64,000 nt of DNA from Pseudomonadota bacterium (GCA_011049115.1 DSCM01000102.1:174-64173); one strand, 5' to 3'; shown: positions 13,388 to 42,854, numbered from the stretch's first letter. Program-made: numbers and translations. The notes: a model not told the origin generated them from the letters alone.

Positions 13388-14173
13388 TCAGACCAGCGTC
13401 GCAGCCCACTCCAAAACTTTATCTGAATAAGCTTTTTTATCGATCAATAAACTTTTCCCGTTGCGATAGATTAAAACACGAGGGGACGATTTGCGCCCAT
13501 GCAACGGCCCAGCATAGTAATACTCAAGAGCATGACGCCAGGATGAGAGCTCGGTTCGAGACCCCACTCCAGGCTTGCCATCCTGTTCAGCTTCTTCAAA
13601 CATCTCTCCCAAATACCAGCTCCCTGCCATGATCGAGGCGTGGGGATCAAGGGGATTATTCACCAAAACAATGCCGCGCTCACTTAACCTACGATGAGCC
13701 TCTGCAAACGTTGCTTTGATGGTCTGCATCAAGCCGGCCGCACTGCTTGAATCGGCCCGGGCATTGGGATCCCCCCCTGACTCCATAATTATTACTGCCT
13801 TGATAACCGCTTGCGGCACATTGAAGATTCTGGCCGCCTGATCAATCGATTCCTGCCAGGGGGCAAGTTTTTTTTGAATTATAGTGGTGACGTTTTTATT
13901 ATAATCAGAGTGTTTTGCTCCAGCCTTGGGGTTGGTGATCGCCGGAACGGGAGACTCCAAGGGAATGAATACTTTGCGCAAGCGATCCCAGGGATCGCTT
14001 GCATCATTTTCCTGGGGCTTGGAAAATCTCCTCCGTTTGTCCTTTTCCCCTGCATAATTATGCTGCAGGCGTATCCAGGGATCCTGGTCTTCCTGGGCAG
14101 CCGCATCGGTCCAGACCAAGAGAAGAAGAATCAGAAAAAAAACACCTAAATTTTGTGGTGATTTCATGATCAA
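13388..14173 (-). CDS. Secreted lytic transglycosylase (SLT domain)
   Basis: Signal peptide followed by an SLT catalytic region (MESGGDPNARADSSSAAGLMQ). Its start overlaps the upstream ExbD-like stop (ATGA). Confidence 0.75.
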   Translation of the reverse strand: MIMKSPQNLGVFFLILLLLVWTDAAAQEDQDPWIRLQHNYAGEKDKRRRFSKPQENDASDPWDRLRKVFIPLESPVPAITNPKAGAKHSDYNKNVTTIIQKKLAPWQESIDQAARIFNVPQAVIKAVIIMESGGDPNARADSSSAAGLMQTIKATFAEAHRRLSERGIVLVNNPLDPHASIMAGSWYLGEMFEEAEQDGKPGVGSRTELSSWRHALEYYYAGPLHGRKSSPRVLIYRNGKSLLIDKKAYSDKVLEWAATLV

Positions 14174-14643
14174 CGCAACTTTTCGGCAAACGCAATGTTA
14201 ATTCCCTGTTCACCCAAATATCTGAAGGCGGCGAAATATTCCGCAAGAGAAACGTGGTTGATGTTGTCGGCAGCCAGATAGATAACCTCTTCCGCACCTC
14301 CCCCGGTCTGCGTTAGTCGGGAGATTCGACCATCCTTGCGCAAGGCTTCCAGATCCCTCCAGGGATGATAGCTGCGCCCGGCAAAAACGAGGCTGATTTC
14401 AGAGCCTTTTTTTTCCAGATGGCCGATTTTGTGGTTTTCAACGGCAGCGAAACGGGAATTACCGGCTTGATGACTCTGCGGAGCTTTAAGCTCCGCTTCT
14501 CGGGAACGGCGTTCTTCGGTTGTCATTAGCAACATAAAGGTAAAAACCATGACTAAGATAAAAAGATAGGCGAAAAGATCTTTACCTGGATCAAGCGCGT
14601 TCTGGTTTAGCCGGCTCATGCCGCCTCTGCGATAATGCCCCAT
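14170..14643 (-). CDS. ExbD/TolR-like biopolymer-transport protein (single transmembrane helix plus periplasmic domain)
   Basis: Short cytoplasmic N-terminus, one transmembrane helix (LFAYLFILVMVFTFMLLM) and a roughly 110-aa periplasmic domain. RBS AAAGGA. Lies immediately downstream of a MotA/ExbB-like gene. Confidence 0.6.
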   Translation of the reverse strand: MGHYRRGGMSRLNQNALDPGKDLFAYLFILVMVFTFMLLMTTEERRSREAELKAPQSHQAGNSRFAAVENHKIGHLEKKGSEISLVFAGRSYHPWRDLEALRKDGRISRLTQTGGGAEEVIYLAADNINHVSLAEYFAAFRYLGEQGINIAFAEKLR

Positions 14644-14645
14644 TT

Positions 14646-15230
14646 TTAAATCCTTTCACTGCATATTTCACCGATACGCAGTCCAATCAGGGTTTCAAGC
14701 CGTTTCATTCTCGTCATCAGATATCTTGAATAGATCAAAGTCACTGTCAGCCCGCCAATCACACCAGCGCCCAGGGAGGTGTACAGCGCCGTCGCCAAGC
14801 CATGGTTCCAGGCTGCGGCGAAAACCACGGCTGCGCTCTCACCCCCGGCAAGACCGGCGAACATTTCATTAAAGGCTCCGATTGACCCAAAAATGGTGCC
14901 GGCAAAACCAATCAGAATCAAGGTGTTGACATAGCCGTTGAGGGCCGTAAAATGAATGCCGATACGACTTTCCACTTCCGACCAGATGGCATCAACAATA
15001 GCTTCCCGGGCCGAACCTTCAGTGGCTTGCAGACGCCGGAATAACGGCACCAGAAAAACCAGAGCAGCATGTTTGCCGACCTTTTCCTGATAACTTTCAT
15101 CGGCAACGACCACCCCCCGTAAATAATCGTAGATCAAGGTCAGACGATGTACCATCAGATAGAGATAAAACAAAAAAATCAAACCGAAGAAGACGCCGAA
15201 ATTATGTAAAAACCAGCTGGCAAACTGCAT
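14646..15230 (-). CDS. MotA/TolQ/ExbB-family proton channel
   Basis: Three transmembrane segments and the family motif GFAGTIFGSIGAFNEM. 194 aa. Confidence 0.75.
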   Translation of the reverse strand: MQFASWFLHNFGVFFGLIFLFYLYLMVHRLTLIYDYLRGVVVADESYQEKVGKHAALVFLVPLFRRLQATEGSAREAIVDAIWSEVESRIGIHFTALNGYVNTLILIGFAGTIFGSIGAFNEMFAGLAGGESAAVVFAAAWNHGLATALYTSLGAGVIGGLTVTLIYSRYLMTRMKRLETLIGLRIGEICSERI

Positions 15231-15247
15231 GATTATCCCCGTCAGGT

Positions 15248-16636
15248 TCAGATTAAGCCCGCCGCATGCAAGGCCGCAAGATCAGGAGCGTTACAGAACG
15301 AGCATGGATCAAGCTCAATGCTTCGACCATCGTGCGTAGCAAGAGAAAGAGGAACGAAGACCCCGAAAGCCCCCCCCCCTGGACCTTCCAGTACGAACGT
15401 TCGTCCCAGAACATCAACTTCTTCCGGTTTGACCCCAGCCTTCAGCAGACCTTTTTCCAGGCTCCAGGTAAAAGCCTGGTTAACCCTGGTATAAATCGCT
15501 CGCTTGACGAAATCGTAGAGATAATAACGAACAGCGGAAATCTGCTCCGGATAAAGCCCGGCCCGTTTCAGTTCCGGCCCCCACTTTTGCCAGGGGTTAT
15601 CAACCTCGATCACCGTACTGGAAAAACTTTCCAGTGAGGCCGCGGGGATCAAACTGCCGTCATCCAGGTCAAGACAACGACCATCCTTGAGCAGGGCCAC
15701 GGCTTTCATTTGCAGAAAGCTATATGATTCCCGCAGATTTTCGATACGTAAAGGAATTATTTGCTGCGGCGAGCGCTCCTTTTCTCCTTCCTTGCGCCAG
15801 GCCTGATGGAGTTGGGTATATTTATTTCGATCAAGCTTCAATTTGGGAAGAACTGTCGTTTTTGTCATCTTTGTCTTTTTTGTCAGAGACGACAAAGGCT
15901 GTTTCTCCATGTTCATGGAATTCGTATCTTTTTCGGCTGTTTTCGGTGAAACCTGGTCCTGAGAGGAGCGGATTTTTTGAAGTTCATCTTCCTGTAAAGT
16001 TGGAAAGTTTTTTTTCACCAAACTTTCAGCATAACTTCGCAGCTGCTGCCGGTCTGATTCCGATAAAAGCTGAACTGCGGTCTTACCTGAGTCAGCTGCA
16101 ACATGGTTACGGCTATGCAGGTCGGTGACGATTTCAGCCTTATTCTCTAGGATTTCCGGTTCCGGATCGAGGACATCATCTTGCGAAAGAACAGCCGAAG
16201 ATTCCGTTTCAACCTGGTTCTCCGTCTCACCCACCAACTCTTCACCGGCGACAAACAGCGAAGTATCCTCGCCCTTGCTTTCAGGTTTTACCTCTGGAGC
16301 TGCCAACGCGGCTGTCGCAACCAGATCTTTCGACTCTGTTTTTTCGATTTTTCCCGTTGGTGGCAAGGGATCGGATTGAGCCTCTGTGGGAAGATCCGCT
16401 TCCGGTTCGAATGCCTGAGTTTCCACCGGCGACCCCTTCTTTTTCAGCGCAACGGGTGCCCGCTCAGCGGCCATTTTTTCGGGAGTAAACAGATGTCGAA
16501 CAATGACTACGGCCTCATCGACGGGCCGGTGCAACTGAAAAAGAAGACCGCAAACCCCGATAAAAACCAGAAAAAATACCAGGCTGACGCGGCCGGTTTT
16601 AAGTCTGCCATTGTTGTATACAAAAAATGAGTGCAT
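15248..16636 (-). CDS. Hypothetical membrane-anchored protein (N-terminal transmembrane helix, long acidic/Pro-rich linker, about 200-aa C-terminal globular domain)
   Basis: RBS AAGGA. The topology is TonB-like, but no TonB C-terminal signature is recognisable. Confidence 0.55.
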   Translation of the reverse strand: MHSFFVYNNGRLKTGRVSLVFFLVFIGVCGLLFQLHRPVDEAVVIVRHLFTPEKMAAERAPVALKKKGSPVETQAFEPEADLPTEAQSDPLPPTGKIEKTESKDLVATAALAAPEVKPESKGEDTSLFVAGEELVGETENQVETESSAVLSQDDVLDPEPEILENKAEIVTDLHSRNHVAADSGKTAVQLLSESDRQQLRSYAESLVKKNFPTLQEDELQKIRSSQDQVSPKTAEKDTNSMNMEKQPLSSLTKKTKMTKTTVLPKLKLDRNKYTQLHQAWRKEGEKERSPQQIIPLRIENLRESYSFLQMKAVALLKDGRCLDLDDGSLIPAASLESFSSTVIEVDNPWQKWGPELKRAGLYPEQISAVRYYLYDFVKRAIYTRVNQAFTWSLEKGLLKAGVKPEEVDVLGRTFVLEGPGGGAFGVFVPLSLATHDGRSIELDPCSFCNAPDLAALHAAGLI

Positions 16637-16730
16637 CAGCTGAATCCTTACTTACCCATAGAGATCAAGATCAGAAACGGTTAACTCACCGGCGGAAAAC
16701 TAACGCGTTCACCGCCGGCAACAACTGCTT

Positions 16731-17444
16731 TTACAGGGCATCAACCAGCCTGGCATTGATGATCGGCGACTCCGGGGTCTCTGACCGCTCGCGCCAAAGA
16801 TCGCACTGCCCGGTAATCCTAAGATTGATTTCCGGCCAAGTCCGACCGAGATCGACGGCTTTGGCCTGGTAAGCTGAGAATTGCTCCCCGTTAAGCCATT
16901 TTTTGACGATCCTGCGGTTTTCCTCAAGGTCACTGAAACCACTCAGATCGTTGTTTGTCATGGCTTCACAGATATCAAGCGCTTGCGTCAGAAGATCCAG
17001 ATAGATATCGATCTCCTCCTCAACGTTGATTTTCGTTCTCAGATATTTTTCCTGAGTAAACTTTCTGCGCGTATTGATGGTGCGAAGCGCGGCCAGATCC
17101 TGGGAATCTTCGGGCAGTCCCTTGAACACCTCGTTATCCCTGGCAAAATCCAAATCCTGTTTATAATCACTGTAACGGGCTAGTTTAGTGCCATAGAGCA
17201 CAGCTTTTTTGAGATTGATGACATAGGTGGCAAAATCTATTTTCCTTTGATTGTTATAAATATTTTCCTGGCTGAATTTCTGTTTCAGCCTGCCCCCCAT
17301 TTCTCCGGTTTCCTTCTCAAGCTCGGGTAACGCCGCTTCCGCGTAGTATTCATAAAGTGAGGCGGCGTGAGCGTCGTTGGCAGCCGCCAGACTCACTCCA
17401 GCCGAAAAAACGAGAATAATCATCAATAGTAATTTTTTTTTCAT
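16731..17444 (-). CDS. Hypothetical secreted/periplasmic protein (signal peptide)
   Basis: MKKKLLLMIILVFSAGVSLAAANDAHA signal peptide. RBS AAGGAG. Confidence 0.55.
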   Translation of the reverse strand: MKKKLLLMIILVFSAGVSLAAANDAHAASLYEYYAEAALPELEKETGEMGGRLKQKFSQENIYNNQRKIDFATYVINLKKAVLYGTKLARYSDYKQDLDFARDNEVFKGLPEDSQDLAALRTINTRRKFTQEKYLRTKINVEEEIDIYLDLLTQALDICEAMTNNDLSGFSDLEENRRIVKKWLNGEQFSAYQAKAVDLGRTWPEINLRITGQCDLWRERSETPESPIINARLVDAL

Positions 17445-17481
17445 GGCAAACTCCTTGTCGGTCTATCCTCAGAGGTTATTG

Positions 17482-18549
17482 TTACTGCCAACTCAAACGG
17501 GCCTGTCGCAAAAAGTCGAGTTCTTCTTCAACACTCAAAACCTCACCGCTGATGCCAGTACTGCTGACCACTCGGATTTCTCCCAGGCCAGCCAAGACAT
17601 CGTTGACCATTTCATCAAGCACCCCACCCAGTTTGTTGGTGGCGCTATTGACTAAAGAAAGGGTATTCCGCAATTCTTCAACATTAGGAAATCCCAGATT
17701 AGCCATCAGTCCCGGAGTCCCCGTCCCCCCGACTTCGGCAACCGGGGTTATCTTGGCGAAGACATTATAAAGATTAGCCAGCAGATCGCGGAAGCGATTT
17801 GAGATATCACTGCCATCAGCCCTGATTTTTTCACGAACGAGACCTGAATACTGCTGGTTCATAGTCGCAACCTTGACCCTGGCTTCGTAAAGACGCCGCC
17901 GCTGTTCCACCTGAAGCAAACGTTTCTTGATTCGATTGTACTTCTGCAACAGACGTTTTTGGTCTTTTTCGTTTTCGGCTTCCTGATATTCTTCAAGGGC
18001 CTTTTGGGCTTCGTCGGAGGCCTCGGCAAAACGTCCTTTTTCATCTTCCAGGTAGTATTCCAGGGCAAGTTCGTAGTTTGTGTTGATGGATCGGGTTGCC
18101 TGACTGTCAACCAATGAAGCCGCCACGGACTGATCAAATTGATCCAGCGCCAGCAGGAGAGGCTCCAGGTTCTGGTCGCAGGCATCTTTCAACCTGCCGA
18201 CTTCAGATAAAATACGACCGTTGAGATGGGCCCGGCGGGCCGCACCTTCCGGCTCATGGGGATTGAGCAAGTCGGAGGCTTCCAGTTGGTTGCGAGTGTC
18301 AAGAAGCTCCTGCAGAGCAACCGTACTTTCGGAAAACTCCTGAAAAAGAAGCTGCGAAGAATTTTTCACCTCATTGCCGCTACGCTCAACCCGCAATCTT
18401 GATTTCTGAGCGATCTGAACAGCGCGATCCGGGGTTTGCCCGGCGGTCAGGGAGCCTTGTCCCACGACGGGAAGGCTCAGCAGAAGCAGAGCTCCGGCCA
18501 AGCCCCGGAAAAAACTCCTCCCCTGCGCGTTAAGAAACATGTTTCGCAT
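17482..18549 (-). CDS. Hypothetical secreted coiled-coil protein
   Basis: Start taken at MRNMFLN (18549, RBS AAGGAG), followed by a signal peptide. The long central segment is charged and heptad-like (EEYQEAENEKDQKRLLQKY...). Confidence 0.55.
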   Translation of the reverse strand: MRNMFLNAQGRSFFRGLAGALLLLSLPVVGQGSLTAGQTPDRAVQIAQKSRLRVERSGNEVKNSSQLLFQEFSESTVALQELLDTRNQLEASDLLNPHEPEGAARRAHLNGRILSEVGRLKDACDQNLEPLLLALDQFDQSVAASLVDSQATRSINTNYELALEYYLEDEKGRFAEASDEAQKALEEYQEAENEKDQKRLLQKYNRIKKRLLQVEQRRRLYEARVKVATMNQQYSGLVREKIRADGSDISNRFRDLLANLYNVFAKITPVAEVGGTGTPGLMANLGFPNVEELRNTLSLVNSATNKLGGVLDEMVNDVLAGLGEIRVVSSTGISGEVLSVEEELDFLRQARLSWQ

Positions 18550-18623
18550 GGCTTTCTCCTTGATTTTTGCTAGCACTAAAAATTTTAAAGCACGTAAAGA
18601 GTTAACAACGGGGAGCCTGATTA

Positions 18624-19154
18624 TCACTGAAACATTTTCCGATAAAGTTCCTGGTCAAGACGGCGACAAAGCTCCATGGTTTTGACCAGGAGCCGGTCAT
18701 CGCGAGTCCTGGATTGATTAACCAGTGTGGCGCAGTAGGCTCGCAGAAACTTACGGTCGATCTCACGATAGGCTTCACGGCTGCGATCCAGGTTCTCGAA
18801 ATAGCGATACACCGCAAGATGAAAAAACTTGTCGTACTGTTTTTGATTAAACACTTTGACCGCCTGCAAAAGATGTTTACGGGGCAAATCACGACCGTCT
18901 TGTAGAGCTTTCTCCATCAAAGGAATCCAGCAATTATAAATACATCCATTGCATTCTTCGAGCAACGCCTCATCAAGCAGGCGGACGATTTCAAAATCAG
19001 TTAACCTGTAATAGTTCTCACCCAGAGCTACTTCACAGCTGGGTGGAGCCAGGGCCGTGGTATTGTGAGAGGCACAGCCTGTCAAACCCATAAGCCACAG
19101 AAAAATTCCTCCCATCATCAAGATCAAGCCGTTGCGATATGTTCTCTTTTCCAT
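18624..19154 (-). CDS. Hypothetical lipoprotein
   Basis: Lipobox LMGLTG|C within the signal peptide. Several Cys pairs (CEVA..., CNGCIYNC). Confidence 0.55.
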   Translation of the reverse strand: MEKRTYRNGLILMMGGIFLWLMGLTGCASHNTTALAPPSCEVALGENYYRLTDFEIVRLLDEALLEECNGCIYNCWIPLMEKALQDGRDLPRKHLLQAVKVFNQKQYDKFFHLAVYRYFENLDRSREAYREIDRKFLRAYCATLVNQSRTRDDRLLVKTMELCRRLDQELYRKMFQ

Positions 19155-19551
19155 AATAATTCCCCCCCCGGTTTAGGATTGCCGAACCCCCATTATTTAT
19201 TTTGCCGCGCTGATGGCGATTACACCTGACTTCCTTATCGAAGAGAAAAAATAGTTTTCAAAAAAAATATGCAGAAGCGATCAACTTGCCGAAGTTTATT
19301 TTTAAGAAGATCCTCAATGGGGCGAGGAATGAAAACGGATAGCCGCTCCTGGTTTGAACTTGCTTGCAATTTACGATGACTGCCTTTATATAGTGCGATT
19401 TTGCATTTACTATCATTGTCGGTTGAACGGATTTCGAATTCTTGACGACGGGATTAAAGGTTCAGCCTGAAGTTTATAGCGCAAAATCAATTATCGGGTT
19501 GAAAAGGTCATTTTTTTTTCGATAATCTTCTCGGAGCAGGATCTGATTGCC

Positions 19552-20304
19552 GTGATGCGAACCAAAATCACCCCCCGACTGAAAGCAAGCGACCAAAGGA
19601 TGATCCAGAGAATTGCCAACCGCGTCTTTATCCGCTACACGCCCGGCGGCAGTAATGGACGGGCTTTGACCCGCGAGGAACTTTTTCACTACGGGGTTAT
19701 CGGTTTACTTGAAGCGCAAAAAAATTACGTTTCCGAAAAAGGGGTGGCCTGGGAGGTTTTCGCGGCCTTCAGAATTGAGGGTGAAATGCTCGATCATATT
19801 CGCAAGGCGCCGATGATCAGGCTGCCGCAAAAGATTCAAGAACAGGTCCGGGAGATCAGGAAGGCCGGAAATGAACTTGAACAACAGGGCTTACCGGCAA
19901 CGCCGATTGAGATTGCCAAGAAACTGGGTTGTGCGACCGACACGGTCACACAACATCTGGCTCTGGTTCCTTCGCTGAGCCCTCTGGCCGAGGAGTGCAA
20001 CCCCGATAACAATGAGAACGGCAACCCGGGGGTGATCCTGGCCGACGACAACGCGGAAACCGACCCCCACGATAAGCTGCTGCGCCAGGAACTTTTGCAA
20101 ATCCTGATGCATTGCCTGGAAAGTCTGCCGGAGACCCGCGACCGCGTTATCGTCAAGGCAAGAAAGCTTGAAGACATCACCCTGCGGGAACTCTCCAAAG
20201 CTTTTGACTGTTCAATCGAATCCATCCGCAAACGTGAAAAGACGGCGCTGCTTCAGTTGCGGGAATGTCTGCAACGACATGGTTGGCTGGCAGCCCCCCG
20301 CTAA
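19552..20304 (+). CDS. Sigma-70 family alternative sigma factor (FliA/WhiG / group-3-like)
   Basis: Region 2 looks like ELFHYGVIGLLEAQKNY...AAFRIEGEML. Region 4 helix-turn-helix is LRELSKAFDCSIESIRKREKTALLQLR. Confidence 0.75.
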   Translation: MMRTKITPRLKASDQRMIQRIANRVFIRYTPGGSNGRALTREELFHYGVIGLLEAQKNYVSEKGVAWEVFAAFRIEGEMLDHIRKAPMIRLPQKIQEQVREIRKAGNELEQQGLPATPIEIAKKLGCATDTVTQHLALVPSLSPLAEECNPDNNENGNPGVILADDNAETDPHDKLLRQELLQILMHCLESLPETRDRVIVKARKLEDITLRELSKAFDCSIESIRKREKTALLQLRECLQRHGWLAAPR

Positions 20305-20379
20305 GCTGCACGTTTTGTTTTTGCACCTCGATTTATAGATTTCAGCAAAGCCACCAAACCGGGTTGAAATATCTATGGA

Positions 20380-20970
20380 GTGGAATTGACTATGGCTAAT
20401 GAAATTGCTAACAAGAGTCTGGAAGATATTTTCATTTTCTGGCGCGACCATCCCAAACAAATTTCCCCCTCTGCCGAGACTCGCCATTTCGACGAAAAAA
20501 CCCTGATCCGACTGGCGGCGGATCGGGGACTAGCCGAGGCCGAGGAAGAAGAGCTCAGGCATCTCGACAACTGTGCCACCTGCCTTGCGGCCTGGTCGGC
20601 CTGGCGAAGGGCTTTCAGCTTCGCAGCCGGAGCCGACATGGAGGAACAGGATTTTCCTCCGAGCTCTGAGATAGATGGCGGTTACGGCTATCTCGAAGCT
20701 GCAGCCAGTTCCTCAATAACGACCCAGGGTTTGGTTCTGGAAAGTCGCTGCGGCGCTTATCGGCTTGAAATTCTGCCAAACCGGGAAAATCCGAAGGAAG
20801 GATTAATCGTGTTGCGCGCCGAAAAGCATAAGGCTGCGGGGAAATTTTCGGTTCGGGATCGCAATGGGCGGGAGATTCTGACCGGTTTTCTTGAAAATGG
20901 TCGGCTGGCCCGTCCCTGCGCTGATTTCAGCGCTTTGGACTTAAGTCTCTGGACGGTGTGTCGGGGGTAA
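20380..20970 (+). CDS. Putative anti-sigma factor (ZAS-type HxxxCxxC zinc motif)
   Basis: LRHLDNCATCLAAW carries H-x3-C-x2-C. It sits immediately downstream of the sigma factor gene. Confidence 0.5.
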   Translation: MELTMANEIANKSLEDIFIFWRDHPKQISPSAETRHFDEKTLIRLAADRGLAEAEEEELRHLDNCATCLAAWSAWRRAFSFAAGADMEEQDFPPSSEIDGGYGYLEAAASSSITTQGLVLESRCGAYRLEILPNRENPKEGLIVLRAEKHKAAGKFSVRDRNGREILTGFLENGRLARPCADFSALDLSLWTVCRG

Positions 20971-22368
20971 GTGCAAGTGGGCCGCTCGAATTCACCAGTC
21001 TGGTTGCCTTTTGCCAGCGGAAACAGCGCCAGGATAGAGCTTTCACTCTATAACCCGGCAACGGAGCGCAGCCGTCCGATTGAAGCCTACATGGTCAGCG
21101 ATTTGGGCAACGATCTCAGCCGGAGTGCCAGCCGTGCGGCAGAAACGGTTTACGCAATTGCCCATGAGGCCGGTTGTGCCCCACCACCGACGGTAGTCGG
21201 TTTCGATCTGCAAGGGCTTGAAAACGGTGCCTCAATCGTTGGCCAGAGCAGCGGTCTGGCCTTGGCCTTGGCCCTGGCCGGCAGACTTTGGCCGGCGCTG
21301 ACGCCGGTTTCCCTGGCGGCTACCGGGGAAATCTCCCGCAGCACCGATGGCGGCCCTTTGCAAAAAATCGACGCGATTGAAGCCAAAGGCCGGGCTGCGC
21401 TGTCCCGGCTTTCCCCGGGAAGTTATTTTCTCTACCCGGCAGAGAACGACCCGGAGCTCAGCGCCGAATTAAAACAGGCCTTGGCCGAGAAGCAAATTCG
21501 GTCTTTGCCGGTTAACAGTGTCGCTGAAGCGTTGGCATTTATTGTCCCGGAAAGCGCCGGTTTAGTCGGCCGCAAGTCAGAAACCAATTTACTACCTAAG
21601 TCTGCGGCCGAAAGCAGCGCACAATATTACAAGCATTTTCTGCCGTTCCTGCTGGCAATCATTCTGATGACCTTTGCGATTTTCAAAAGCTTTAATTTTT
21701 CACAAAAATCTGATGCCGTAAAGTTTGCGGCCCGGCCGACGCTTTCCGATGCAGGTCAAAGCCCATCTTCCTCCCCGGCTTTTTTTAAAAACATCAAACA
21801 GCCATCTGAAAGCCATACAACTTCTTCGCCGACAGCTGTTGCAACGACTTCTGAACCGCTAAGCCAGGCACAAGAAAGCTCTCTCCGGCCAGTCCATGGA
21901 AACGAAGCAAACCTTGACCGGCAAGCTGTGGCCCGGCGCCCGACCATCACCCTTTCAGGCAATTCCGGATTGGCCGATCGCCTGGCGCAATGGACAAAGA
22001 CCCGTTTACAGGCCTCCCTCGATGCCGATCGCGACCTCTCCGGCAAGCTCCTGTCTCTTTCCGGACGTGTCGAATTAATTGAAATCCAGGAAAGCTGGGA
22101 CAGTGACGAAGACCGTCTCAGCTCTTCAATCACGGCCGGTTTTAACGGAGAGGCCAGTCTTGTTGGGGATAAGGAGCGCCGAGTCCTCAAGCTGCCGCCT
22201 CTGACCGTCAGCGGCGGTCGTCCTCTGCGTCAGCAACTTCCGGATATCGCAGCCCTTCTCGTAGCTCGCATTATCAACAACCTGAGCCCCAGGGTTGTTG
22301 CCGGCGGAGCTCCGAAGTCACCTGATCGGCCCCGTTCAAGCGGTGGTGGCGACCAGGGTTTTGAATAA
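20971..22368 (+). CDS. Membrane-anchored protein with N-terminal Lon-like (S16) peptidase domain, one transmembrane helix and a Ser/Pro-rich periplasmic region
   Basis: GQSSGLALALALAG...AATGEIS...PLQKIDAIEAKGRAALS...FLYPAEN runs parallel to the E. coli Lon sequence GPSAGIAMCTALVS...AMTGEITLRG...IGGLKEKLLAAHRGG...LIPFEN, with a candidate Ser-Lys dyad. GTG start abuts the upstream stop. Transmembrane helix FLPFLLAIILMTFAIF. Confidence 0.55.
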   Translation: MQVGRSNSPVWLPFASGNSARIELSLYNPATERSRPIEAYMVSDLGNDLSRSASRAAETVYAIAHEAGCAPPPTVVGFDLQGLENGASIVGQSSGLALALALAGRLWPALTPVSLAATGEISRSTDGGPLQKIDAIEAKGRAALSRLSPGSYFLYPAENDPELSAELKQALAEKQIRSLPVNSVAEALAFIVPESAGLVGRKSETNLLPKSAAESSAQYYKHFLPFLLAIILMTFAIFKSFNFSQKSDAVKFAARPTLSDAGQSPSSSPAFFKNIKQPSESHTTSSPTAVATTSEPLSQAQESSLRPVHGNEANLDRQAVARRPTITLSGNSGLADRLAQWTKTRLQASLDADRDLSGKLLSLSGRVELIEIQESWDSDEDRLSSSITAGFNGEASLVGDKERRVLKLPPLTVSGGRPLRQQLPDIAALLVARIINNLSPRVVAGGAPKSPDRPRSSGGGDQGFE

Positions 22369-22549: not shown

Positions 22550-22753
22550 ATGGATAATCTGCATGATTTGAACCGATTTTTTGCCAACCTGCAGTTCGAC
22601 TGGCAAAGTATCCTGATGATAATTGCCGGAGCTCTGGTGCTCTATATCGCTTTTCGCATCGGGGCTTTCATCCTGAAGATCCTCGTCGGTCTCGCGGCCA
22701 TCGCCTTAGTGGTCATCGGCATTATCAAACTACTCCCTTATCTGGGTTTATGA
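22550..22753 (+). CDS. Small two-transmembrane-helix membrane protein
   Basis: RBS AAGGAC followed by two hydrophobic helices. No homology recognised. Confidence 0.35.
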   Translation: MDNLHDLNRFFANLQFDWQSILMIIAGALVLYIAFRIGAFILKILVGLAAIALVVIGIIKLLPYLGL

Positions 22754-41198: not shown

Positions 41199-42233
41199 CT
41201 ATTCAGAATCTTCAGGAGTCCGGGGAGGTGTTGCAACCGCTGCCGGAATAGCATAAAATTCGCGAACTTTTCGCTCGATTGCCGACATCAGCTCAGGATT
41301 TTCCCGTAGCTGATTACTGACAAAGTCACGCCCCTGGCCAAGCCGTTCACCATCATATGAATACCAGGAGCCGCTTTTTTCAATAATCCCGCAGTCAGCG
41401 GCCAGATTCAGAACATCGCCGGACTTAGAAATTCCTTCACCAAACAAAATATCAAATGTAGCCTCTTTAAAAGGTGGGGCCACCTTATTTTTCACGACCT
41501 TGACCCGAGTCGTATTGCCATAGACGTCATCGCCTTTTTTCAGGCTGCCGGTCTTTCTGATATCAAGGCGGACGCTTGCATAAAATTTAAGGGCGTTACC
41601 TCCTGTCGTCGTTTCAGGATTACCGAACATAACCCCGATTTTCATGCGGATTTGATTGATAAAAATGACTGTGGTCTTTGATTTGCTGATTGCGGCTACC
41701 AATTTGCGCAGAGCCTGCGACATCAACCGGGCCTGCAGACCCATATGCGAGTCGCCCATTTCCCCCTCGATCTCGGCTCTGGGCACCAGGGCGGCGACCG
41801 AATCCACCACGACAACATCAAGAGCTCCACTGCGCACCAGGATCTCGGTGATTTCCAGAGCCTGTTCGCCGGTGTCAGGTTGTGAAACCAGCAGATCATC
41901 GACATTGACTCCCAGCTTGCGGGCATAGATCACATCCAGGGCGTGTTCGGCATCGACGAAGGCGGCGACCCCGCCGGCTTTCTGAGCCTCGGCGACGATG
42001 CTCAGCGCCAGAGTGGTCTTCCCAGATGACTCGGGGCCGTAGACTTCGATAACCCGTCCCCGGGGAATACCTCCGACTCCCAACGCGATATCAAGACTCA
42101 ATGAACCGGTCGGGATAACCTCGATATTCTGAGCCCGGGACTCATCGCCCAGCCGCATGATCGAGCCTTTGCCGAATTCCTTTTCGATCTGACTGACCGC
42201 CATCTCCATCGCCCGATGCCGATTTTTATCCAT
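41199..42233 (-). CDS. recA: Recombinase RecA
   Basis: [10 protein letters not shown] Walker A and the L1/L2 loop regions. Start at MDKNRHR (42233, RBS GGAG). Confidence 0.95.
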
Positions 42234-42263
42234 GAACAACTCCTCCAGCAAATATAGAAAAAA

Positions 42264-42734
42264 TTAGATGATCAATATCTTTACCTGCAGAACCAGCCAG
42301 GCCATAACGCCGGCCGCCAGATCGTCGGCGACAACCCCGAAACCTCCGGGAAGATTGGCTTCGCACCAGTCGGCGGGAAAGGGTTTGACGATGTCAAAAA
42401 AACGAAAGAGTAAAAATGCGGCCACGGCGTTACCTAATCCCAGCGGCACTCCGGTCAGCGCCAGGGCCAGACCGGCGATTTCATCAATGACGATTACCGG
42501 ACTGTCGGTGGTCTTCAGAGGCTTAGCGGCCGCCCCGGCAAGATAGACGGCAACTCCGGAAAAAAGCAGCACCAACAGCAGGTATGCAGCCTGATCCAGC
42601 CGGGAAAAAATCAACCATAACGGCAAGGCGCCCAGAGACCCCCAGGTCCCCGGAGCTCGCGGCAAGGCGCCCAAACCACCGCCGGACACCGCCAAAAGCA
42701 ACCAGTCTTCACGACCAGGAAGTCTACCGGACAT
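42264..42734 (-). CDS. pgpA: Phosphatidylglycerophosphatase A
   Basis: PgpA-family hydrophobic 156-aa protein with LLFRFFDIVKPFPADW. Confidence 0.7.
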   Translation of the reverse strand: MSGRLPGREDWLLLAVSGGGLGALPRAPGTWGSLGALPLWLIFSRLDQAAYLLLVLLFSGVAVYLAGAAAKPLKTTDSPVIVIDEIAGLALALTGVPLGLGNAVAAFLLFRFFDIVKPFPADWCEANLPGGFGVVADDLAAGVMAWLVLQVKILII

Positions 42735-42854
42735 TTATTTTCCCCCGACCTGGTTTTCTCCGCCAGCCGGCGGAGAGGCTACAGACTTCTAGTGAAAGAA
42801 GTTTCCTTTGTCAATTATCGAAAAAACAAACTAAGTCAGACTTGTCTACCTGAC

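Follow-up and report, generated by a model that had tools for sequence, protein, structure and literature searches.

In many uncultured bacteria, three genes recur side by side that encode an alternative sigma factor, an inhibitor-like protein with a zinc motif, and a Lon-type protease that is anchored in the membrane and devoid of an AAA+ module. We consider it rather probable that this trio constitutes a conserved signalling module, the mechanism of which we infer. It would probably represent an undescribed path from an envelope signal to transcription, running via the cutting of the candidate inhibitor. The trio studied here lies in a 64,000-nucleotide stretch of DNA from a Pseudomonadota bacterium, which was analysed as a whole and is referred to as the window (Table 1). 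A previous sequence-only reading had singled out these genes and proposed that the protease destroys the anti-sigma factor. Its observation is confirmed and its interpretation is supported, the 196-aa protein being the candidate that would bind the sigma factor and be cleaved. Of the outcomes that it had named as refuting, none turned up.

Table 1. Features of the sigma/anti-sigma candidate/Lon-like locus and their positions in the window.
Feature	Position	Strand	Remarks
Divergent envelope gene cluster, candidate regulon	13388..19154	-	Shares promoter element; syntenic in close loci
TTGAAA-N15-CGATAA, promoter-like	19235..19261	-	Faces divergent envelope cluster (first gene start 19154)
TTGCAA-N17-TATATA, conserved sigma-70-like element	19364..19392	+	Possible basal promoter of sigma operon
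TTGAAA-N15-CGATAA, promoter-like	19499..19525	+	30 nt ahead of the sigma gene; candidate promoter for autoregulation
Sigma factor of the sigma-70 family, group-3-like, 250 aa	19552..20304	+	Pfam Sigma70_r2, r3, r4
Anti-sigma candidate, 196 aa, soluble	20380..20970	+	N-terminal helical domain, disordered linker, C-terminal 7-strand beta domain
L105-E-A-A-A-S110, Ala-rich motif in anti-sigma candidate	20692..20709	+	Predicted disordered linker; proposed cleavage/degron site
AAA+-less Lon (S16) proteolytic domain (aa 1-195)	20971..21555	+	Predicted cytoplasmic; profile and Foldseek matches
Candidate catalytic Ser93	21247-21249	+	Aligns to E. coli Lon S679
Candidate catalytic Lys139	21385-21387	+	Aligns to E. 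coli Lon K722
Single transmembrane helix, aa 223-241, FLPFLLAIILMTFAIFKSF	21637..21693	+	KD19 2.17
Predicted periplasmic alpha/beta domain, aa 325-438, and tail with G-F-E terminus	21943..22365	+	AF2 block-mean pLDDT 82-94
67-aa small protein, two TM	22550..22753	+	Downstream of Lon-like gene; conserved

An ORF scan of the window recovered the three genes at 19552-20304, 20380-20970 and 20971-22368, all on the plus strand and encoding 250, 196 and 465 aa. The spacer between the first two measures 75 nt, and the TAA of the second (20968-20970) directly abuts the GTG start of the third at 20971, precisely as had been described. Slightly later starts are more likely for two of the proteins: the sigma factor probably begins at ATG 19555, which is conserved among orthologues, and the anti-sigma candidate at ATG 20392 (public call, 192 aa). 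Stop and start codons also abut or overlap in L013/L014.

The predicted synteny of the three genes was borne out. The order sigma factor, HxxxCxxC protein, Lon-like protein is kept in 9/9 close loci. The entire neighbourhood is syntenic in this close clade, pdxJ and acpS included, and synteny there thus says little on its own. Among distant relatives, with Lon-domain matches ranging down to E~1e-17, a homologue of the anti-sigma candidate lies directly upstream of the Lon-like gene in 10 of the 11 informative cases, and the sigma factor is present wherever the upstream DNA reaches far enough. Sigma homologues hold the equivalent position in close and distant loci alike. Upstream of the Lon-like gene of P0088 (L011), both the sigma factor and the anti-sigma candidate are missing. 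In the window's clade, the 67-aa protein with two transmembrane segments (19-residue hydropathy, KD19, of 2.92) is a possible fourth gene of the module; it is 65-75% identical and equivalently positioned in L001, L002, L003, L005, L006 and L009, and a Pfam search with it gave no match.

Family profiles and structural modelling indicate that a true Lon proteolytic domain, a predicted Ser-Lys peptidase, makes up the first ~195 residues of the 465-aa protein. A profile built from 70 members of the Lon-like family (A7) was compared with the PDB, and its 46 top matches were all Lon P-domains (3.9e-14 to 1e-4). With a narrower profile (A2), the best 11 matches and 12/15 overall were Lon proteases. 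The A2 alignment places G-Q-S93-S-G on G-P-S-A-G, A-T-G-E-I on M-T-G-E-V, and K139 on the catalytic Lys in the V-K-E-K of Lon. Searching the PDB by Foldseek with an AF2 model of the protein yielded Lon P-domains for all of the best 50 matches listed (best E=8.8e-6; TM 0.60-0.68, normalised to isolated Lon P-domains). The model itself is of moderate confidence, with a mean pLDDT of 65 and poorly modelled regions at residues 1-46 and 71-92. The resemblance to Lon is weak from the single sequence and becomes significant only with family profiles and structure: the window's 465-aa sequence alone has no Pfam match at E<=1 and a weak NCBIfam match to LonB (E=0.0077), whereas Pfam Lon_C matches 20/70 of its relatives, the best at 1.9e-6. 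The Lon assignment made in the sequence-only reading stands as to fold and as to Lon_C among relatives, but not for Lon_C in the window's sequence by itself, and the domain reaches to about residue 195 instead of the 150 proposed.

The Ser-Lys dyad postulated earlier is intact at the level of the family, Ser93 and Lys139 being kept in 148/148 diverse relatives. Among 150 representatives that are <=50% identical pairwise, Gly119 and Pro156 are each retained in 148, Thr118 in 142 and Asn159 in 141. Lon P-domains normally depend on an AAA+ unfoldase and on hexamerisation. The 465-aa protein has no AAA match in Pfam or NCBIfam, in agreement with the earlier claim, and its P-domain begins at about residue 5; the Lon domain is N-terminal in all relatives.

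The transmembrane segment is covered by a helix in the AF2 model (residues 216-246) and is found at a roughly equal position in nearly all relatives. Lys and Arg residues flanking it average 3.47 on the N-terminal side and 1.76 on the C-terminal side, the N-terminal side being the richer in 119 proteins versus 16. By the positive-inside rule, the Lon domain is thus predicted to be cytoplasmic and the C-terminal part periplasmic. The single helix followed by low-complexity sequence had been noted before, but the low complexity ends early (aa ~247-322) and gives way to a folded domain. This domain (aa 325-438) is modelled confidently by AF2 with a beta-alpha-beta-beta-beta-alpha order, and has no sequence match in Pfam or the PDB. 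The protein terminates in GFE in 26/26 close relatives and in GF[DE] in 123/170 family members. The periplasmic domain and its G-F-E tail are presumed to serve as a sensor or docking part.

The 196-aa protein carries the H-x3-C-x2-C motif reported previously (H61-x3-C65-x2-C68), together with an upstream H36. In a set of 32 homologues that reaches as low as 20% identity, H36 and C68 are conserved in 32/32 and H61 and C65 in 31/32. The H36-H61 spacing of 25 equals that of H6 and H31, counted in a ChrR sequence that had been verified with PDB 2q1z_B, and the local sequence H-L-S-L-C-x-x-C in distant members is identical to that of ChrR. In the AF2 model, helices extend to residue 84, a segment with pLDDT<50 spans residues 86-114 and strands occupy residues 118-195; the HxxxCxxC motif spans the junction between helices 56-64 and 66-84. 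At its N-terminus the protein carries an extension of 35 residues, among them an invariant Trp21, and its C-terminal beta domain is conserved in homologues. The maximum 19-residue hydropathy (KD19) of 0.86 shows that it contains no transmembrane segment.

How far does this protein resemble known zinc-binding anti-sigma (ZAS) factors? Aligned to the ChrR anti-sigma domain with hhalign, it gives a weak match (P=5.7e-4, probability 29%) over 39 columns, in which all four ligands are aligned; RsrA aligns at P=0.02. The NCBIfam RsrA model is reached at E=0.12, and Pfam zf-HC2 matches 1/32 homologues at E=0.32. A PDB profile search with the family returned nothing relevant, and a Foldseek search with the model gave no match at E<0.019. 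The earlier ZAS-type label is hence backed by the motif, its spacing and the weak ChrR alignment, but not by zf-HC2 or fold searches, and membership stays a motif-level call because neither profile nor fold reaches significance. In the L022/L023 branch both Cys are lost, which implies that zinc is inessential to the module; the L022 branch still has its Lon partner, and its candidate still has the beta domain and the AAA motif.

That AAA motif lies within the low-pLDDT linker as part of L-E-A-A-A-S. A109 is invariant in the 32 homologues, AA[A/S] occurs in every homologue examined, the Cys-less L022 branch included, and AAA[S/T] is universally conserved among them. By analogy with CalpT (see below), we propose that L-E-A-A-A-S may be the cleavage or degron site of the anti-sigma candidate.

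The sigma factor classifies, from its sequence, as a group-3 factor related to FliA, with Pfam matches to regions 2, 3 and 4. Regions 2 and 4 had been recognised before, and region 3 is added here. Its top NCBIfam match is FliA/WhiG (TIGR02479; 94.9 bits, 5.5e-27), which lies below the model cutoff of 189.6; FliA orthologue status was rejected on these grounds, and the FliA-like designation holds only as relatedness.

The shared promoter element that the sequence-only reading predicted for this region was found as two divergent copies, facing the sigma operon and the envelope cluster. TTGAAAN{14,16}CGATAA has only these two matches in the 64-kb window, against 0.07 expected by chance. Both lie inside the 397-bp intergenic region and have a sigma-28-like -10. 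Their core, placed 15 nt past TTGAAA at both promoters, is TCGATAA, to be compared with the GCCGATAA-type -10 expected for the FliA/WhiG (sigma-28) subfamily; it is invariant, while the next base varies (T/C/G/A). The minus-strand element is conserved in all six orthologous loci that contain the intergenic region, with a TAGAAA variant in two. Farther afield, a related wGAAA-N15-CGATAw precedes the sigma gene in L017/L018, L024 and L025. These elements may be used by the module's own sigma factor. The plus-strand copy also fits the sigma-70 consensus at 10/12 positions. At the third, sigma-70-like element, the block CTTGCAATTTGTA...TAT.AT is conserved in most aligned intergenic regions.

The divergent cluster comprises genes for a protein that has a lipoprotein-like L-T-G-C motif at its N-terminus, as read from the sequence, for a coiled-coil protein, a weakly ExbB-like protein and an SLT transglycosylase (1.4e-15), and for two unknowns and a further unknown of 157 aa. 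Its previous designation as an ExbB/ExbD cluster retains one sub-threshold MotA_ExbB match (21.1 bits vs a cutoff of 22.9), but the putative ExbD had no match in profile searches. Distant loci have envelope proteins as neighbours, e.g. OmpA-family and DUF4384 proteins. Among the neighbours scanned, there were neither cas genes nor site-1 or site-2 protease genes.

We propose the following mechanism. In the cytoplasm, a soluble anti-sigma protein would hold the group-3 sigma factor in check; the N-terminal helical domain of this protein would carry the ChrR-like His/His/Cys/Cys zinc site. The Lon-like protein would be a single-pass inner-membrane protein with its ATPase-less protease domain in the cytoplasm and its C-terminal domain and G-F-E tail in the periplasm. 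Upon sensing of an envelope signal by this periplasmic part, the Lon-like domain would cut the anti-sigma linker at or beside L-E-A-A-A-S. The sigma-bound fragment would be left with an Ala-Ala-type C-terminus and could be degraded by general proteases such as ClpXP. The released sigma factor would then transcribe from TTGAAA-N15-CGATAA, driving its own operon in a positive feedback loop as well as the divergent envelope cluster. What the signal is, that the 196-aa protein binds the sigma factor, that it is cut and where, the ensuing degron step, and the use of these promoters by this sigma factor are all parts that we infer.

Other readings of the same genes need to be weighed. The Lon-like protein could be a regulon member or an envelope quality-control protease that is merely co-transcribed with the sigma factor and whose substrates lie elsewhere, for instance membrane proteins, secreted proteins or the protease itself. 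The anti-sigma protein would then be freed by a different signal, or by zinc- or thiol-based chemistry of the RsrA kind. We hold this to be unlikely. It would account for the conserved His/His/Cys/Cys motif, for the place of the Lon-like gene in the putatively autoregulated operon, where its induction would accompany that of the regulon, and for the envelope proteins encoded next to distant members. Yet even in very distant lineages, where other neighbours change, the Lon-like gene stays next to the anti-sigma gene and the two remain coupled through their start and stop codons, the protease domain is predicted on the cytoplasmic side, and the Cys-less L022 branch keeps motif, beta domain and Lon partner. 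Many ZAS zinc sites are moreover structural rather than redox sensors, ChrR being an example.

We give little credence to the idea that the Lon-like domain is a non-cleaving receptor or tether that engages the beta domain of the anti-sigma protein and acts by partner switching, or by sequestering sigma and anti-sigma at the membrane. The conserved beta domain would suit such a role, and catalytically dead Lon-like domains occur in other proteins, RadA among them. BrxL has likewise been described as being without a Ser-Lys dyad (PMC12839542). The (near-)invariance of Ser93, Lys139, Thr118 and G-x-S-x-G in the 150 representatives, however, is unexpected for a domain that only binds. We give just as little credence to the 196-aa protein being a substrate, adaptor or activator of the protease, with the sigma factor controlled otherwise. 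Comparison with anti-sigma families and structures gave it no significant match, but its gene immediately follows the sigma gene in every locus, its ligand pattern and spacing are ChrR-like with all four ligands spanned by the profile alignment, and AF2 predicts a helical region with HxxxCxxC at a helix junction.

A module consisting of sigma factor, cytoplasmic anti-sigma candidate and membrane-anchored protease is reminiscent of several known systems. Like the ZAS factors ChrR, RsrA and RslA, the anti-sigma candidate is soluble and encoded directly downstream of the sigma gene, and ChrR H6/H31/C35/C38 correspond to its H-x3-C-x2-C plus the ligand 25 residues upstream. Its C-terminal beta domain, however, is unlike the ChrR cupin at the sequence level. 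In the DegS/RseP-RseA and Prc/RseP-FecR systems, an envelope signal leads to anti-sigma destruction, as proposed here, and RseA carries an Ala-Ala-type C-terminal degron after the RseP cut. Whereas anti-sigma factors of the RseA/FecR type are transmembrane proteins, the candidate described here has no transmembrane segment. Unlike in these systems of regulated intramembrane proteolysis, a single membrane protein would both sense the signal and cut, and would do so on the cytoplasmic side.

The Lon-like protein shares with LonA, LonB and LonC the fold, the G-x-S-x-G, (A/M)-T-G-E, K and P-x-x-N motifs and equivalent Ser-Lys positions. It differs in lacking their AAA+ and N-terminal substrate-binding domains and in having an N-terminal P-domain that is followed by a transmembrane helix. 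Archaeal LonB is anchored by helices inserted in its AAA+ module, an arrangement that is absent here. Another trio of protease, sigma inhibitor and sigma factor is formed by Craspase (Cas7-11/Csx29), Csx30 and RpoE. There, target RNA activates a protease of the caspase-like CHAT type, and no homology between the parts of that trio and those of the module described here was detected; DUF4384, present in some Csx30 C-termini, recurs beside distant members of our module.

The nearest precedent, an experimental one that the sequence-only reading did not cite, is CalpL/CalpT/CalpS, a CRISPR-linked system. It likewise joins a Lon-type protease, with a Ser-Lys dyad and no AAA module, to an anti-sigma factor in the cytoplasm and the sigma factor of the latter. 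CalpL cuts CalpT, the N-terminal fragment of which carries a MazF domain, in an unstructured LAA|A motif, exposing an LAA C-degron so that cellular proteases then free the sigma factor (bioRxiv 10.1101/2024.05.08.593097). This LAAA site may have a parallel in the AAA[S/T] in the predicted disordered linker of our anti-sigma candidate. The candidate has a ZAS-like helical domain in place of the MazF domain, and its family profile showed no sequence similarity to the CalpT chains in the PDB. The sigma factors also differ, with region 3 present in the group-3 factor studied here and CalpS being ECF-like. Canonical LonA/LonB are nearer relatives of our Lon domain than is CalpL, for which the comparison of A7 with the PDB gave no match at E<=10. 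The CalpL system is linked to type III CRISPR, whereas no cas gene lies among the neighbours scanned here. The sensor differs as well: CalpL uses a cA4-binding SAVED domain, while the 465-aa protein, which has no SAVED or other Pfam match, possesses instead a transmembrane helix, a predicted periplasmic domain and a GF[DE] tail.

All three ORFs of the trio are present in the window, laid out as the sequence-only reading had described them (see table). The source of the window is an uncultured Thermodesulfobacteriota relative. A 75-nt gap separates the sigma factor ORF from that of the 196-aa protein, whose TAA stop directly abuts the GTG of the Lon-like gene. A G-rich Shine-Dalgarno-like run, read by eye from the sequence, lies just 5' of this GTG. 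Slightly later starts are suggested for all three proteins, namely an ATG at 19555 for the sigma factor (orthologue alignment), an ATG at 20392 for the 196-aa protein (public call, 192 aa) and a GTG at 20977 for the Lon-like protein (public call, 463 aa). Between the Lon-like gene and pdxJ lies a further ORF for a small two-TM protein, unlisted in that reading. Six orthologous loci have it at the equivalent place, with 65-75% identity; a Pfam search gave no match for it, and it may be a fourth module member in the close clade. An Rfam scan of the window returned no RNA family.

Features of the module and its surroundings (window coordinates; aa, residues of the Lon-like protein)
Feature	Position	Strand	Remark
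SLT lytic transglycosylase	13388-14173		end of divergent cluster
Presumed 'ExbD'	14170-14643	-	
'ExbB'	14646-15230	-	
TTGAAA-N15-CGATAA copy	19261-19235	-	faces divergent cluster
TTGCAA-N17-TATATA, sigma-70-like conserved block	19364-19392	+	between the two divergent CGATAA-type elements
TTGAAA-N15-CGATAA copy	19499-19525	+	30 nt before sigma start
Sigma factor ORF	19552-20304	+	250 aa
Anti-sigma candidate ORF	20380-20970	+	196 aa
Lon-like ORF	20971-22368	+	465 aa
Single TM helix	aa 223-241		after protease domain
C-terminal G-F-E	22357-22365 (aa 463-465)		
Two-TM protein ORF	22550-22753	+	67 aa

Searches with the Lon-like window protein alone came up empty in Pfam (no match at E<=1) and against the PDB (phmmer, noise only), with LonB at E=0.0077 in NCBIfam, so family profiles were needed. 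Word-indexed searching turned up 26 close homologues, every one unnamed or 'hypothetical'. When the N-terminal domain was used for an exhaustive HMM search, 425 cluster representatives were matched at E<=1e-3, 226 of them at E<=1e-10, giving a family of at least 425 clusters when clustered at 50% identity. Almost all of the 150 representatives listed carry the domain at their N-terminus or close to it, and every member checked is publicly named 'hypothetical protein'. The family has no Pfam, NCBIfam or PADLOC model.

Comparing a profile of 18 close members with the PDB gave Lon as the best 11 matches and 12 of 15 overall (best E=0.008). This alignment sets G-Q-S93-S-G over G-P-S-A-G and A-T-G-E-I over M-T-G-E-V; K139 falls on the catalytic Lys, the second one in V-K-E-K, which by our count is E. 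coli K722. With a profile built from 70 diverse members, 46 Lon P-domain matches were obtained in the PDB, including the A. fulgidus Lon homologue P-domain (E=3.9e-14), T. thermophilus Lon (E=5.9e-13), the TTC1975 peptidase, presumably of the AAA-like LonC type (E=3e-10), and the E. coli Lon P-domain (E=1.8e-9). The top 50 Foldseek matches listed for the AF2 model (mean pLDDT 65; residues 1-46 and 71-92 poor, 93-195 good) were all Lon P-domains, with TM values of 0.60-0.68 against isolated domains. The dyad Ser and Lys occur in 148 of 148 aligned sequences from the 150 representatives (mutual identity <=50%), and there is hardly any variation at the G-x-S-x-G, A-A-T-G and P-x-x-N residues around them. 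No AAA+ module is present. For the Lon_C domain proposed from the sequence, the Pfam model matched 20 of the 70 members individually (best 1.9e-6) and not the window protein itself; the proposed dyad is present. Family-level evidence is decisive for the Lon assignment; the window protein by itself is nearly uninformative.

Counts of K+R flanking the TM helix average 3.47 on the N side versus 1.76 on the C side, with the N side richer in 119 versus 16 proteins. By the positive-inside rule, the protease domain is predicted to be cytoplasmic, and a periplasmic location for it is rejected. No N-terminal signal peptide was apparent when the sequence was read by eye. The earlier description of a TM helix followed by a low-complexity tail holds for the helix and is incomplete for the tail. 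A Ser/Ala/Pro-rich linker leads into a confidently modelled beta-alpha-beta-beta-beta-alpha domain (AF2; aa 325-438), which, like the terminal G-F-E, had been omitted. This periplasmic domain has no Pfam match and no PDB profile match. The G-F-E end is invariant in 26 of 26 close relatives, and GF[DE]-COOH terminates 123 of 170 family members, where the preceding tails are highly variable. Such a conserved free C-terminal tripeptide, predicted to lie in the periplasm, suggests that a partner docks there.

The 196-aa protein is soluble, with no TM segment. Its AF2 model (pLDDT 74) is helical as far as residue 84 and ends in a seven-strand beta domain (118-195), with a linker modelled at low confidence in between (86-114). 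The H-x3-C-x2-C zinc motif noted from the sequence is indeed present as H61-x3-C65-x2-C68 and is kept, together with an upstream H36, across 32 homologues with identity down to 20%, as well as in further distant copies drawn from the loci. By our own count, H36 and H61 have the same spacing, 25, as the zinc ligands H6 and H31 of ChrR (sequence verified against PDB 2q1z), and distant members read H-L-S-L-C-x-x-C, the exact ChrR wording. An hhalign alignment of the family with the ChrR anti-sigma domain (39 columns, P=5.7e-4, probability 29%) superimposed all four ligands. Pfam zf-HC2 was not significant against the family, the family profile retrieved nothing relevant from the PDB, and Foldseek of the model gave generic beta-sandwich matches only (E>=0.019).

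The sigma factor matches Sigma70 regions 2, 3 and 4 in Pfam. Its top NCBIfam model is FliA/WhiG (5.5e-27), and because the score of 94.9 bits falls far under the cutoff of 189.6, we regard it as a group-3, sigma-28-related factor and not a FliA orthologue. A known defence system is not supported: PADLOC gave only a weak resemblance of the sigma factor to MzaA, and no defence-system model matched the Lon-like protein or the anti-sigma candidate. BREX BrxL is unrelated and is described as lacking the dyad.

The proposed genetic coupling of the three genes was borne out among both close and distant relatives. The order sigma, anti-sigma candidate, Lon-like is found in 9 of 9 loci recovered from reference genomes, all MAGs labelled Thermodesulfobacteriota, Deltaproteobacteria or Candidatus Tharpella; this result is weak alone because the entire neighbourhood, pdxJ and acpS included, is syntenic. 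A stronger test used twelve distant Lon-like representatives (domain E-values 8e-60 to 1e-18), eleven with usable upstream sequence. A homologue of the 196-aa protein lies immediately upstream in ten of these eleven, P0088 being the sole exception, and a sigma factor of 228-262 aa (403 aa in locus L022) with regions 2 and 3 or 4 is present wherever the contig extends far enough upstream. Other neighbours, such as OmpA-family, DUF4384 and caspase-like proteins and FGE-sulfatase domains, vary by lineage, and the trio is therefore the conserved core.

At loci of distant relatives (L010, L011, L015-L018, L024-L027), the trio adjoins genes for OmpA-family, large DUF4384 and caspase-like Peptidase_C14/CHAT proteins and FGE-sulfatase domains. 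The large DUF4384 genes near distant trios are often divergently transcribed, as is the envelope cluster here; in the Craspase system, some Csx30 proteins likewise have DUF4384 at the C-terminus. The naming of the window's divergent cluster as ExbB/ExbD is weak: 'ExbB' has a sub-cutoff MotA_ExbB match (21.1 bits versus 22.9), and the presumed 'ExbD' has no family match.

When the 397-bp intergenic region was aligned with its counterparts from six orthologous loci, three conserved blocks stood out, two of which are inverted copies of TTGAAA-N15-CGATAA. A shared element had been anticipated around 19155-19551, and these two divergent copies supply it. They are the only matches in 64 kb (0.07 expected by chance), and both recur in orthologues. 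The core TCGATAA is invariant, while the copies differ at what would be the sixth base of a sigma-70 hexamer; this core resembles the sigma-28 -10 element, GCCGATAA. Similar wGAAA-N15-CGATAw elements lie upstream of the sigma gene in distant loci. These results support a putative role of the sigma factor in regulating its own operon and the divergent cluster. The plus-strand copy fits a sigma-70 promoter as well, at 10/12, so the assignment of the element to this sigma factor is inferred. The sigma operon may have a basal promoter in the third block.

Elsewhere in the window, a T-run followed by TCGATAAT (TTTGTTTTTTCGATAAT) lies at ~42790-42822 (-), upstream of pgpA (42264-42734) and recA (41199-42251). 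It resembles the -10 part of the module element, with no TTGAAA 15 nt upstream, and the resemblance is probably chance. A TTGAAA-N13-CGATAA-like string inside the coding region of coiled-coil gene orthologues (g17482 family; L002 ~7401, L004 ~1702 and L005 ~7456, all on the minus strand) could be an internal promoter or merely conserved coding sequence.

From sequence and models, we infer the following function. The single-pass Lon-like protein would sense the periplasm through its C-terminal domain and G-F-[D/E] end; envelope partners to which this end may dock are OmpA-family, DUF4384 or ExbB-like proteins. In response, its cytoplasmic, ATP-independent protease would cut at the AAA motif of the soluble, zinc-type anti-sigma factor, freeing the sigma-28-like factor. 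That motif, x-A-A-A-[S/T], is the most persistent feature of the 196-aa protein across all homologues; its window form, L105-E-A-A-A-S110, lies inside the predicted disordered linker. Cleavage of the anti-sigma candidate by the Lon-like protease is the reading we favour. The broader proposal, that the trio represents a widespread kind of trans-envelope signalling not described before, in which one membrane protein senses the periplasm, cuts the anti-sigma factor and frees the sigma factor, is put forward tentatively. Redox control of the anti-sigma factor, with the protease acting on other substrates, appears unlikely. The wide conservation of the zinc ligands speaks for it; against it, one branch (L022 4310-4894, L023 3-572), reading D-H-L-S-R-S-P-K-D, has lost both Cys residues and retains the AAA[T] motif, beta domain and Lon-like partner. 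Motif and position are supportive and profile and fold searches negative, hence our label of ZAS-like anti-sigma candidate; that the 196-aa protein is no anti-sigma factor seems quite improbable. An inactive Lon-like domain of the RadA/ComM type is rejected because the dyad is invariant, and we give little credence to a non-cleaving tether. For the favoured cleavage model, the dyad, the AAA motif, the defined promoter element and the G-F-[D/E] C-terminus are testable handles. Overall, the observation made in the sequence-only reading is confirmed and its interpretation supported.

Established routes from the envelope to sigma factors comprise membrane-spanning anti-sigma factors cut by site-1/site-2 proteases, partner switching and direct sensing by the anti-sigma factor. 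Unlike in regulated intramembrane proteolysis, the anti-sigma candidate here is soluble, and sensing and cutting would fall to a single polypeptide, replacing the site-1/site-2 cascade. To our knowledge, cutting of an anti-sigma factor by an AAA-less Lon-type protease is established only for CalpL, a CRISPR-linked system that was described in 2023. The literature yielded only CalpLTS and Craspase as analogues of the trio, Craspase/Csx30/RpoE being a second protease/inhibitor/sigma trio. The module belongs with these protease/anti-sigma/sigma modules, within a large unannotated family, and CalpLTS is its closest precedent. CalpL cuts CalpT in an unstructured Ala-rich motif, LAA|A, exposing an LAA degron, whereupon cellular proteases free CalpS (bioRxiv 10.1101/2024.05.08.593097). 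The proposed logic is the same, and the anti-sigma candidate here also carries an Ala-rich motif in its predicted linker. However, the protease here is transmembrane with a putative periplasmic sensor, whereas CalpL has a SAVED domain; the anti-sigma candidate is ZAS-like and CalpT MazF-containing; the sigma factor is group-3 and CalpS ECF-like; and no CRISPR genes occur among the neighbours scanned. Moreover, the Lon domain is nearer to canonical Lon, CalpL not being matched by the 70-member profile. If our reading is correct, the CalpL logic would extend to ordinary envelope signalling, with a bare Lon proteolytic domain at the membrane acting in signalling as a regulated protease of defined sequence specificity.
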